Both the position numbers and the translations under genes were made by a program. From assembly GCA_010093705.1 (NCBI GenBank), contig MU006099.1:682001-746000 (forward strand): a stretch of DNA of 64,000 bases, written 5' to 3'. Source of the DNA: Patellaria atrata CBS 101060 (lineage: Eukaryota). This document shows positions 9,965 through 15,029 of this stretch, in pieces; the stretch's first letter is position 1; each line of letters begins with the position of its first letter. The notes beneath the pieces were generated by a model, which saw nothing but the letters and a program-made list of their open reading frames with translations, ran no database searches and was not told the origin of the DNA.

Positions 9965-11846
9965 GTGCAGTTTTCACTTCTCGAAAACTACAGAATCAAT
10001 AAAAGATTCAATATTCGTTTGGTGAAAGGAAAGAAAATCAAGAACGGGCGAGAAGATGAGCGGCCCCATCTCAAGTGCGCCAGTGTCCAGACAGGAAACC
10101 GATGTCGCAGCTATCTGTGAAATCGTTTGTGATTCCGCCGTCCGCCGCGTCTCTACGTTCATTTCGTTACTTGTTTGATATCTTTCTCTCACCGACAGAT
10201 TGCATACTTTCATTTTTAGCATCCTCTTCTTGATTTCCTTAATCTCTTCGATATCTGGAACCGGCATCTGACAATACATTCAAGGGAAAGAACTCGAAGG
10301 GATAAGCCGAAGTCTGCGCGCTCTAGCTCAAAATCAACATCTGGACGGCAAAAGTCGAACAAAAGCAAATCGTACAAGACCGAACCCGGGACCAAACCAG
10401 CGTCATGACTATCGCCCATGGGAGTTTTCAGATTGTCTCGCCGACGGAAACTCAGGACTACATGAGATAAGGCCGTTGCAGATGAACTTAGAAACTCTCA
10501 GCACCAGAAACGGTCGACCCCTTGTGACTGGCCTATCCAGCAGCACTTTATCATTTTTCATGTACATTCGTTGCATTCGCGTTTCTTCATTTTGTTTCGC
10601 TTTCTTTCCCGAATATCACACTCGGAAAGGTTTGGAATCTGGTTTTTATCGTTCTCGGGGATGTTACATTGCCATTGCATTGGAAAGTTGTAATTTAAAG
10701 CATGATGATTTTCTGTATGAGTGCCAATTTTGGCGCTTTAGCGGGAGTTATGGAGTTCCACCCGAGCACCTTTTATCCACGAGGAAGGCCTGGAGGCATA
10801 CTTGGTTTGGCTTTTTTCAGTCAGTTTTGGATAAGCGTGTCGGGGGTTGAGAGGAAGAATGAGATGAAGCCAGGATTTTTGACGAACAGAAAGAATGCAA
10901 CTGCAAATTGGGCGGCACATCTTCCATCTACTTTTTGAGGCATTTCGGGTCGCCGGGTTAAGGAATTATCAGGGGGAGACTTTTGTACATAATACTCCCT
11001 TGCGGCTTCAGTGCTGTGAAGGGAAAGAGATTGGGAATAGAGAATGCGAACAACTCGACTTTAGATATCAGGTGGTCGTTCCCCGTTCTGTTTCATCCTT
11101 TCCATAGGTATCTTTCCTACCCCCTACACTCCTGCTTTCCTAATCCTACCTCGATCCTCTCTCCCAGCGCTCCTTCCCTCTCCTAAGGAACGATTAACAA
11201 CAACACCTCATCGGATATGCCGTACAAAAACGTCTGGAAACCACCTAACACTACGGTAACCTGCCCGTGAACACGTGGTCAATCTGGAGAGCGGCTCTTT
11301 GATTTCATACACGTTTGTATGGTTTCATAATAGCATGTGATCACTGCGAAAAGCGACGCAAGGTAGTACTTTGTTTTTTTGGGATTCAATATTTGTTTGT
11401 GTACTATCTTTCTCCGGAGATGGAGGCGCCAAATTATCGGGTACGAAGGCGAACAAACGATTGTAATGAGTTATTGTTCATTCTACCTACCTGCACGATC
11501 ATCATTGCTGAGCAGCGGAAATCTAATAATCAGACGATGTTATGCGTGTCTTGAAAACGCCTTCCCTGCTCGCCGTTATGAAGTAAGAAAAAGAGAGGAG
11601 ATCAAACCCCCTATCCAAGCGTCCCGTCCAGTCCCACGAAACTCGATCTCAAAAATCAATCCCACCACTCCATTGCCCGAATCATCAATCAATCAATCAT
11701 GAATATCTCCTGGTCTGAAACTCCACGTGTATGTCAAATTCAACGGGAGCCCTGAACTCCGAAACCGGGATGAGGATATGATGCCAATCTAAAGCGCGCA
11801 CTTGGGGAAGGTAATGCCATGCGTTGAAAACATGTTGAGGTATAGG

Positions 11847-13008
11847 CTATAGTTCGTCCATGTTACCGGCAGGTTCCTCGTCGTCACCGCTCTCATAACT
11901 GCCAACAGAGCTCATTTCGTCGTCGACTTCGCTGTCGTCCGAAGCTTCTTCAACTGCTTCTTTCGAGGCGTATTTGAGGACGTACTCTGTGGAACACATT
12001 GACAATGAGTCCCATATTTCCGAGCGATTTAGGCATACTCTTTGTGTAATAGGGGACTACGGACAAAGGATTGGGAGATGTGAGGAACGACTTACCTTTG
12101 ACTTTAATATCATAGCTCTTACTATCCCTCATCAATAGCGCAGCAGCTTCACCGTTCAAAGGATCAGTAGGATTCGGATACCGTAGCAGCTGTGGTAGGA
12201 AAACCTCGAAGATGTTGATGAGGGCATACATAGGAGACCATGTCTGATTGATCACGTCCAAGCAAACCGACCCGGAACTGAAATGGTGTGAGTCAATGAT
12301 GCAAATCATCACAGGGTATAGCATGGAACATGTGATAATGTTCAGTATAGGGAAAAGGTTGCGTGAGCGGGAATACTGACAGTTCATCGATGTTGGGGTG
12401 GAAAATGCGGTTTACGAAACCAATACTCGGGCTCTTGTAGGGATATTGATCGGGAAGCTCTACGTGAATTTTCCATAGACCGCCAGAAAAGGGGGCTATA
12501 CAGTAAGTTCAGGCTTACAACATGGAGACATTATGGCGGGGAACACGTACTCTCCTCGGGACCCTTGAAGCGAACATAGAATTCTTGCCTAAAATATATT
12601 AGATATCAGGTCGGGACATTGTTATATCACAAAATTGGGAGAAATAGACGAACACTATACTGTGTCAATAAATGGGTACCATGGTGGTTGATCTAACACG
12701 AGCTTACTATTATCATTCACAAGTGTAACTTCATAATCACTCATCAACCTAACATTCGCGAGTTATCAGTATCCATTTGAAACTTAGAACTTTTCTTGCC
12801 GCAATATGACGCATGAGGGCGAGTGTGCATACATCCTGTGCTCTTGTCAGCAATGGTCCTTGCGTTGTCTGGACCAACAAAGCTTACTTCATGACCTAAA
12901 CGCACAGCAAAACGCATCCCGTCAGCTTAGAGTCCAGAGGCAAATATCCAAACAGAAGAATAGTGCGCGACCTACATCCGTCTCAATTCTGCGCTTGGGA
13001 CTACTCAT
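11847..13008 (-). CDS. UBC8: Ubiquitin-conjugating enzyme E2, Ubc8/UBE2H type, with several micro-exons
   Basis: Spliced reading: [97 protein letters not shown]...[12 protein letters not shown], then an acidic tail ending MDEL*. The HPN motif and catalytic Cys are present. The 5' exons are 13008-12976, 12895-12888, 12835-12833, 12748-12708, 12654 and 12588-12551. Confidence 0.95.
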
Positions 13009-13517
13009 GGTGACGGCTTAAGCTAAAACAGTGCCGCGACGAGGACGTATGATGAGGTGATAAGGTGCGTTCGGGCGAGGAGAGGTTGAAGGACGAGGTA
13101 GCGGACGCTGGTGGAAAAAGGGTTGTAGAAAGAGTGTCTTGATAGGTAGATAGCTATGTGAAACGGACTTCTACTCCGAATCCGGGCTTTGTTGCGGGGA
13201 CGAGGTCGAAAGCTATGGGTAAGAGTAATAATCAGTTATGATGGGTCTTTGTATGCTGTTGTTCTCAGTGTGAGAGCCGTGGGTGTGTTTGGTAACAAGT
13301 TGTAAAAGTGTTGTGAGTTGTAGGAAAGAAGAGGTAGAGGAAAGAAGGAGTGGTGGTGGTTATGTGCTCGCGGAATATGTACGTTAGGTACAAAGTCATG
13401 GATATGGGATCCAGGTCACGCAAGTCCCGCCCCGTCACCGTTCTTGGTCATGCATTATTTGCATTTGGCGGGGAAATTGGATAAGGGCCTGAATGGGAAT
13501 AGTTGAGGTCTTTATCA

Positions 13518-13590
13518 TCACGTGCAGCGGCTGTAGCCGGTTGATTTTAAAGAATCAAAGAAAAGGGATTAGAGGGAGATCAGCACGTGA
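13518..13590. promoter_or_regulatory. Two TCACGTG E-box elements in the divergent UBC8/ECM31 promoter
   Basis: ATCACGTG at 13517-13524 and CACGTGA at 13584-13590 match a bHLH (Cbf1-type) consensus. Function is inferred only. Confidence 0.4.
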
Positions 13591-13945
13591 TCGGCTTCGG
13601 CAATCGGCGTTAGAAGGTTCCTCGGCAAGTCAAACCGGCCAGAACCGCGTCCACTTGCTTCCGTAATTTTTGCAACCAATCATATCTCACACATCATTGC
13701 CCTTTGACCGAGGCAATTTTGGTTAGCTGCCAAGGCCGTAGAAACTGCCCGCAACACCACAAAAGTGCTCCCTGTTCTCTATCTTGCGCTGTAGAAAACA
13801 TCATGAACCAAACAATAAAAACGCTACTCACCGCACCGCCCCAACAAAATGGGCCCCTCTCATCCATTCTCACTCCCGGTCGCGAACTCTTCGCAAACTC
13901 GAATCTCGCAAAATTTTCAATACTTTCCAACTTTTGCGCCTTAAC

Positions 13946-15029
13946 ATGACTGCCGTAATGTCGCGGGCTGCAGTTCGTTCACTGTCATCTATACCACGCC
14001 AGACGTCCTTATTGTCATCGCATACAGTTGGAAGGTTCTTGCTTTCCCCAATAAACCAGAGCAGACATTCGTCGCATTCTCCCCTGGGTACGCCAGCTCC
14101 GCAGAGGAAGAAAGTCACGATCAATATCCTTCAGTCTATGTATCGCAAGAAGGAACCTATCACTATGATAACGGCCCACGATTTTCCAAGCGCCCATGTT
14201 GCAGACCATGCCGGAATGGACATAATACTTGTTGGAGATAGCCTGGCCATGGTAGCTCTGGGTATGGAGGACACCAGTGAGGTAATAATGGAAGAGATGT
14301 TATTACATTGTCGGTCTGTTGCAAGAGCTACCAAATCTGCCTTCATTGTATGTCTTTACGCTGTGACTACGTCGTCCTACTCTGAACTTAACTCACTTCC
14401 CACTGCAGATCGGTGACCTCCCCATGGGTACCTACGAGATCTCTCCCGAGCAAGCACTCGACTCCGCTATCCGCTTCATTAAAGAAGGCCGCGTCCACGC
14501 CGTCAAGTTGGAAGGTGGTATCGAGATGGCCCCGACAATCGCGAAGATAACCCGTGCTGGCATTCCTGTCCTTGCTCACGTCGGCCTGACCCCCCAACGG
14601 CAAAATAGTCTTGGCGGCTTCCGTGTTCAGGGCAAGTCGACCGCCTCCGCTGTGAGAGTGTTGGAAGATGCTCTTGCTGTCCAGGAAGCCGGCGCCTTCG
14701 CTACTGTAGTAGAAGCCGTGCCTGCAGAGGTTGCGTCTCTAGTCACGAAGAAGCTGAGCATTCCTACAATTGGTATTGGCGCTGGTAATGGCTGTTCCGG
14801 ACAAGTCCTCGTACAAGTTGACATGTCCGGAAATTTCCCACCTGGGAGATTCTTGCCAAAGTTCGTCAAACAATATGGCAACGTCTGGGCCGAGAGCATG
14901 AGGGCTATCACGGCGTACAAGGAAGATGTTAAGTCTAGGGCGTACCCTGCACCGGAACATACATATCCTATGTCTAAAGAGGAGTTTGTAGAGTTTGAAC
15001 GTTTCGTTGAGTGTAATGCTCCTGCGTGA
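13946..15029 (+). CDS. ECM31: 3-methyl-2-oxobutanoate hydroxymethyltransferase (ketopantoate hydroxymethyltransferase), probably mitochondrial; intron 14348-14408
   Basis: PanB motifs ITMITAHD, ILVGDSLAMVALG, GDLPMGTYE, AVKLEGG, HVGLTPQ and PTIGIGAG. The N-terminus is Arg/Ser-rich like a presequence. Confidence 0.95.

Follow-up and report, generated by a model that had tools for sequence, protein, structure and literature searches.

A probable one-nucleotide exon in the UBC8 gene of Patellaria atrata and of other Pezizomycotina fungi

Introduction

One-nucleotide exons are already known from both plants and fungi. The APC11 gene of Arabidopsis has been described as carrying a constitutive single-base exon, mis-annotated at first, which was tested in Arabidopsis and in rice by means of GFP-fusion constructs (Guo and Liu 2015, PMC4674806). 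For the CYP621A P450 genes of Fusarium, which are rarely expressed, a one-nucleotide exon G in an AG-G-GT context has been reported in 20 orthologues, all from this one genus (Nelson and Syed 2026, PMC12940212). The evidence for it came from RNA reads, from a mismatch in phase and from comparative alignment; almost every public model is wrong at that point, and the authors termed their case the first from a fungus and the second on record (PMC12940212). A long-read annotation of Coprinopsis cinerea contains 13 1-nt exons, the omission of which breaks the gene models; in the passages and the searchable supplement text of that study, no gene for a ubiquitin-conjugating enzyme (E2) is named among those that carry them (PMC12230235).

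The present work concerns a candidate exon consisting of a single T in the UBC8 gene of Patellaria atrata CBS 101060. As in CYP621A, a fungal nuclear gene would have a single base placed between two short introns and completing the codon of a conserved motif; the UBC8 case is different in that the base is a T within AG-T-GT, the gene encodes a housekeeping E2, the layout is found in loci whose protein tails resemble those of several Pezizomycotina classes and a 3-nt exon lies upstream. With APC11 it shares a single base between two spliceosomal introns, although APC11 is a plant gene examined with constructs, whereas the UBC8 exon is proposed from sequence comparison. Coprinopsis cinerea exemplifies genome-wide, in a fungus, the splicing of one-base exons that is proposed for UBC8, but this species is a basidiomycete (PMC12230235). 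No description of the UBC8 one-base exon or of the structure of this gene was found in the literature searched, which reaches few subscription journals. One-nucleotide exons being already known, the UBC8 case would add one to them, which stands out by the range of fungal classes involved and by the adjacent 3-nt exon.

Two types of abutting introns also invite comparison. Stwintrons, together with a 1-nt intron shift, have been described in Pezizomycotina (Fekete et al. 2017, PMC5587772). The UBC8 introns are similar to them in that two short U2 introns abut, that splicing would be consecutive, and that there are lineages with the introns one base apart and a lineage with one intron (L063). 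In a stwintron, however, a splice signal of the outer intron is split by the inner one and the mRNA retains nothing of the stretch, while the UBC8 introns are both complete and one base is kept. The original prediction had placed the arrangement close to such twin-intron structures, a kinship that was not borne out, as the splice signals of each intron are left intact by the other and the T would be kept in the mRNA. Assignment of the window introns to the stwintron class was considered and rejected, each of them being complete alone and their removal as a whole leading to a frameshift. Ratchet points are zero-nucleotide exons in very long animal introns, at which recursive splicing proceeds stepwise and no base is kept. 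With these the UBC8 layout has in common the juxtaposition of an acceptor and a donor and a stepwise removal that would start upstream; unlike them, it retains one base, and its introns are of 53 and 65 nt.

Identity and structure of the UBC8 gene

The window, which is the whole stretch of 64,000 nucleotides that was analysed, contains on its minus strand a gene that can be taken, from its translation and its closest matches, to encode a UBC8/UBE2H-type E2 of a Pezizomycotina fungus. The coding region (11847..13008, minus strand, as are all exons and introns of the window given below) is modelled with nine coding exons and eight introns, encoding 186 aa. The first coding exon (13008-12976, 11 aa) is followed by an 80-nt intron (12975-12896) and by an 8-nt exon, GTCATGAA (12895-12888), which encodes V and M and contributes two bases to the K codon. 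A probable exon of 3 nt, GAT (12835-12833), comes next between introns of 52 nt (12887-12836) and 84 nt (12832-12749), and precedes an exon of 41 nt (12748-12708) that encodes 13 aa plus the A of a Met codon and ends with ...GAT AAT A. Beyond the region of the one-base exon, a 38-nt exon (12588-12551), which starts with GCAAGAATTC (G CAA GAA TTC), provides the G of this Met, 12 aa and one base more, and the coding region is completed by exons of 115 nt (12495-12381) and 182 nt (12277-12096), the latter being the largest, and by the tail exon (11986-11847).

When joined by their coordinates, the nine exons give an open frame of 186 aa, which is the length of the transcript-derived relative P0098. 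Positions 12276-12097 of the largest exon are 100% identical to P0006, a deposited protein of 194 aa named 'ubiquitin-conjugating enzyme h [Patellaria atrata CBS 101060]', and the tail exon has a 100% match to P0006 alone. The Pfam family PF00179 is assigned, in precomputed form, to P0006 and to all fungal relatives listed, and the window translation contains FHPNID and SGSVCLDV, that is, the HPN motif and the catalytic Cys of the UBC core. The relatives are labelled 'E2 8' or 'E2 H' in the source databases, labels that are to be taken as names only. Rfam returned no match at E up to 1 for either strand of window positions 11000-14000, and the predicted RNA fold of 12716-12580 has no unusual structure (z = +0.45).

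It might be argued that the gene is a broken copy, owing to an assembly indel or to decay, and that AG-T-GT is a coincidence within one long intron. A transcript-derived protein of Patellaria atrata was sought with the tail exon, and only the deposited model P0006 was found at 100%; none of the sequence runs listed as containing this locus is on record as RNA. No RNA support for Patellaria atrata was thus located among the runs and proteins listed, which is compatible with a broken copy. On the other hand, Logan contigs of two runs, spanning 11905-13400 and 11772-13400, have no other letter and no gap relative to the window; these runs are probably DNA, possibly from the assembly's own sample, and show no joints. 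A comparison with raw data had been named in the original prediction as the way to detect an assembly indel, and the base-for-base agreement of these contigs with the window gives no sign of one. Considering also that all nine exons are open and add up to the consensus length of 186 aa, and that 12 further distinct loci share the layout, a broken copy is exceedingly improbable.

The probable one-base exon and its splicing alternatives

The codon of Met-29, located at the turn between VTLVNDN and QEFYVRF, is very probably spread over three exons, the middle one being of a single base. The layout that had been predicted for the minus strand can be read directly, with A at 12708, a 53-nt intron, T at 12654, a 65-nt intron and G at 12588. 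Intron A (12707-12655) has the donor GTAAGC and a branch-like TTGAC 10 nt before its acceptor TATAG, and intron B (12653-12589) has the donor GTTCGT and a branch-like CTAAT 10 nt before its acceptor TTTTAG; both introns are therefore complete as claimed, neither sharing a donor, branch-site-like motif or acceptor with the other. Some of these signals deviate from the ideal, the donor of intron B having pyrimidines at +3 and +4 and the branch-like motif of intron A being off consensus. A direct join of 12708 to 12588 shifts the frame, in agreement with the earlier statement, and A+T+G rebuilds the Met of VNDN-M-QEF as one codon over three exons, which is the sole canonical solution that gives the conserved peptide. 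The T at 12654, middle base of this codon, is flanked by two complete introns and its omission breaks the frame or the conserved protein, which are the marks of a one-nucleotide exon. Based on this anatomy, on the conservation of the layout and on transcript-like contigs of relatives, we infer that the T exon is spliced in Patellaria atrata.

The motif AGNGT occurs exactly once in the 121-nt gap, and when the gap interior was shuffled 5000 times, a fraction of 0.025 of the shuffles had an AGTGT that leaves neither intron shorter than 40 nt. There are 16 single GT/GC-AG introns in the window that keep the frame, none of which yields the Met, and both flanking peptides are kept by four of the 16. 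These four, on the minus strand, are the donor at 12707 with an AAG acceptor at 12584 (N-K-FYVRF), a GC donor at 12703 (N-SK-QEF), a GTTAGA donor at 12697 and a GTACCC donor at 12679, which gives exactly the deposited model P0006. If two introns are allowed, each of at least 40 nt and with a middle exon of up to 30 nt, 11 solutions keep the frame; VNDNMQEF results only from the T exon, which also has the best, that is, most consensus-like, donors.

Among the alternatives that the original prediction had dismissed, the nearer CAG acceptor does lead to a stop (ATA TAG), but the frame-keeping AAG acceptor at 12584 had been overlooked. Its use would define one intron of 124 nt (12707-12584), ending 5 nt into the next exon, and a protein with VNDN-K-FYVRF that is two residues shorter and devoid of the Met. 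The frame of this product is open and GTAAGC is a good donor; nevertheless, AAG is a weak acceptor situated behind a closer TAG, VNDN-K-FYVRF is present in none of the segments listed for 217 proteins, and the AG-T-GT conserved in 14 loci would be left unexplained. A single intron of this kind is very unlikely.

Conservation of the layout in related loci

A scan of metagenome contigs retrieved 428 matching stretches, 351 of which encode relatives, and 80 loci were kept. The arrangement A/GT..AG/T/GT..AG/G is found at the same codon in 14 of these 80 (L053, L054, L060, L064, L067, L069, L071, L073, L075, L076, L077, L078, L079 and L080). Twelve of them are distinct, the gap being identical in L075 and L078 and nearly so in L069 and L076, and the window brings the number of distinct sequences to 13. 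In the 14 loci the first intron measures 48-84 nt and the second 50-73 nt, and, with the window and the duplicates counted, 28 of 30 introns have a YTRAY motif 7-17 nt upstream of the acceptor. An alignment of the 13 distinct sequences has a mean column identity of 40%, and the only invariant positions are the exon flanks, both GT, AG-T-GT and the last AG; AG-T-GT has survived while the intron interiors diverged beyond alignment. The alignment of UBC8 loci proposed in the original prediction as a search for a conserved AG/T/GT was thus successful in 13 distinct sequences including the window. Shuffling of each locus gave a suitable AGTGT in 0.01-0.064 of the trials, which are not independent as the loci are homologous.

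An uninterrupted ATG is present in 62 of the 80 kept loci, mostly on short, intronless, transcript-like contigs, and in some cases on long genomic contigs that have other introns. The remaining kept loci are one of each kind: L049 (Leu), L063 (first intron only), L017 (partly spliced) and L056 (exons absent). In the transcript-like L049 (positions 1-200) the segment reads VNDS-L-QEF, with Leu replacing Met, which indicates that the Met is not invariant among more distant relatives. L063 (3132-3184) has the first intron only (A/GTCAGT..GCAG/TG), its second exon being of 11 nt, and its lineage either never gained intron B or lost it. L056 (1493-2170) is UBC8-like and does not have the exons LMSDYE..GPEE; its ..VMKM enters an intron-like stretch that is joined directly to PFAGGNWK, and the locus could be a pseudogene or else a truncated paralogue.

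A second very small exon accompanies the T in the same gene. The GAT at 12835-12833 is, to judge from the reading frame, a probable 3-nt exon that supplies the second Met of VMK-M-LMS; it is situated upstream of the one-base exon, at a distance given as 93 nt, and the 8-nt exon described above precedes it. With the 3-nt exon included, the protein has the consensus length. In 10 of the 14 sequences with the 5' part on the contig, the layout is AA/intron/GAT/intron/G, with GCT in L069 and L076, and the remaining four carry a single fused exon of 11 nt.

Transcript-like contigs and probable order of splicing

The short intronless contigs are presumed to be transcripts on the basis of their length and of the absence of introns. 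L014 (1142 nt, intronless) is 99.5% identical to the genomic L077 over 389 nt and 100% identical over both the 41-nt and the 182-nt exon; identity is 95.4% over 153 nt, where seven differences fall in one exon, all of them synonymous and at third codon positions, which points to close relatives that are not provably one organism. L014 reads A-T-G where L077 has A/GTATGT..CACAG/T/GTCTGT..TCTAG/G and, as no T adjoins either flank in L077, a single intron cannot give the L014 cDNA.

The second contig, L017 (1062 nt), reads ...AAT A T, followed by 57 nt (GTACGT..AATAG) and then by G CAG. A gap-free alignment places these 57 nt on intron B of L071 (identity 43 of 57); elsewhere in L017 the other 5' introns are absent and one more intron is kept, at DEL/SGS. 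L017 is read as a partly spliced transcript from which intron A was removed first and in which intron B is retained; it could in principle also be genomic DNA of a lineage devoid of intron A. The original prediction had suggested looking for intermediates with one of the two introns removed, and this search provided one, the relative's contig L017, in which it is intron A that is gone. The reverse order, with intron B gone and intron A kept, was seen in none of the 80 kept contigs. The base is present in the transcript-like contigs L014, paired with L077, and L017 of relatives, the organisms being close relatives that are not proven identical.

These contigs also bear on the idea that the gap is a nested intron of the stwintron type, removed whole, with the T supplied otherwise. 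Two abutting introns do resemble the complex introns of Pezizomycotina; however, removal of all that lies between 12708 and 12588 shifts the frame, no donor, branch site or acceptor of one intron is interrupted by the other, and the relatives' transcript-like contigs do contain the T, so that this explanation is hardly credible.

Taking the T as an exon between two separate introns, it is proposed that each short U2-type intron would be recognised as a unit, by intron definition, the sizes being typical for fungal introns. Since the acceptor of intron A and the donor of intron B are one base apart, two spliceosomes could presumably not occupy them at once, and the introns would have to be removed one after the other. 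The order would likely be upstream-first, as suggested by L017, one molecule in which A has gone before B, in a manner similar to recursive splicing but with one base kept.

By comparison with the cDNA L014, an extra intron of about 124 nt is located near the stop codon of L077 (1907-2032), in the acidic tail, and the window gene is devoid of it.

Distribution and age

The loci were placed taxonomically by comparing their tail exons with named proteins, which serves as a rough pointer, summed tblastn matches being too noisy. By this rough pointer, L053 is nearest to Fusarium, L067 to Penicillium, L071 to Drepanopeziza, L073 to Coniochaeta, L078 to Teratosphaeria and L079 to a lecanoromycete, the placement of L069 and L076 being uncertain. 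Taken together with the residues found at this site in named protein models, these pointers suggest that the layout is found across Dothideo-, Sordario-, Leotio-, Eurotio- and Lecanoromycetes, and that both introns were lost in some lineages. As for the origin of the pair, a tandem duplication of the intron is conceivable. A wider proposal is slightly more likely than not: that the one-base and the 3-nt exons predate the split of the main Pezizomycotina classes and have been kept since. In that case no known one-nucleotide exon would be older or more widespread, most public genomes of the group would model it wrongly, and its splicing would be obligatorily upstream-first, like that of a recursive splice site at which one base is kept.

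One-nucleotide exons represent the lower limit of exon definition by the spliceosome, and such an exon in a conserved and expressed E2 gene, common to many ascomycete lineages, would constitute a natural series of variants for the use and order of abutting splice sites. In addition, lineages with both, one or none of the introns bear on intron gain, intron loss and one-base shifts.

Public protein models

A first list of 120 proteins comprised 63 from NCBI; without two that bear plant labels and one of Taphrinomycotina, 60 Pezizomycotina models remain. None of these 60 has ..NDNM(Q)EF; both flanks are present in 17 of them, with 15 different fillers in between. Among the contig-derived proteins from Logan, JGI and ENA that have both flanks, 11 of 12 have NM or SM. 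The fillers M-Y-V, M-F-V and M-S-V correspond to T plus GTATGT, GTTCGT or GTCNGT; such M-x-V fillers are found in Salinomyces, Hortaea, Plenodomus and Septoria, and M-Y-A in Fusarium sp. Ph1. The filler S-K corresponds to A plus GTAAG (Dissoconium, Coniochaeta, Drepanopeziza, Coccidioides and Epichloe). Some of the fillers in named models are in this way spelled by splice-site sequence.

In a second list, ranked by likeness to the correctly spliced protein, ten named Pezizomycotina models from NCBI do have the Met; either the introns are absent from these genes or the one-base exon is already included in some public models. The claim that gene predictors generally miss such exons consequently fits the first list and has to be softened in view of these ten.

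The deposited model P0006 has a spurious-looking filler of 10 residues in place of the Met, and the second Met of VMK-M-LMS is absent from it. If this model were correct, splicing would use the donor GTACCC at 12679 and the acceptor at 12589. It has in its favor that it is the deposited model and that its frame is open, but position +5 of GTACCC is not a G, no other NCBI model shares the filler, these models disagreeing with one another at this site, the insertion corresponds to what is intron A in relatives, and the residue of the 3-nt exon is dropped as well; P0006 is highly unlikely to reflect the true splicing. With the one-base exon as the preferred reading, P0006 and the NCBI models of the first list, all of them without the Met, represent a concrete annotation error to fix. 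Both protein searches are topped by P0001, a protein of 302 aa labelled Quercus suber that scores far above the fungal full-length proteins; the plant assembly may here contain a duplicated or fused E2 of fungal-like character.
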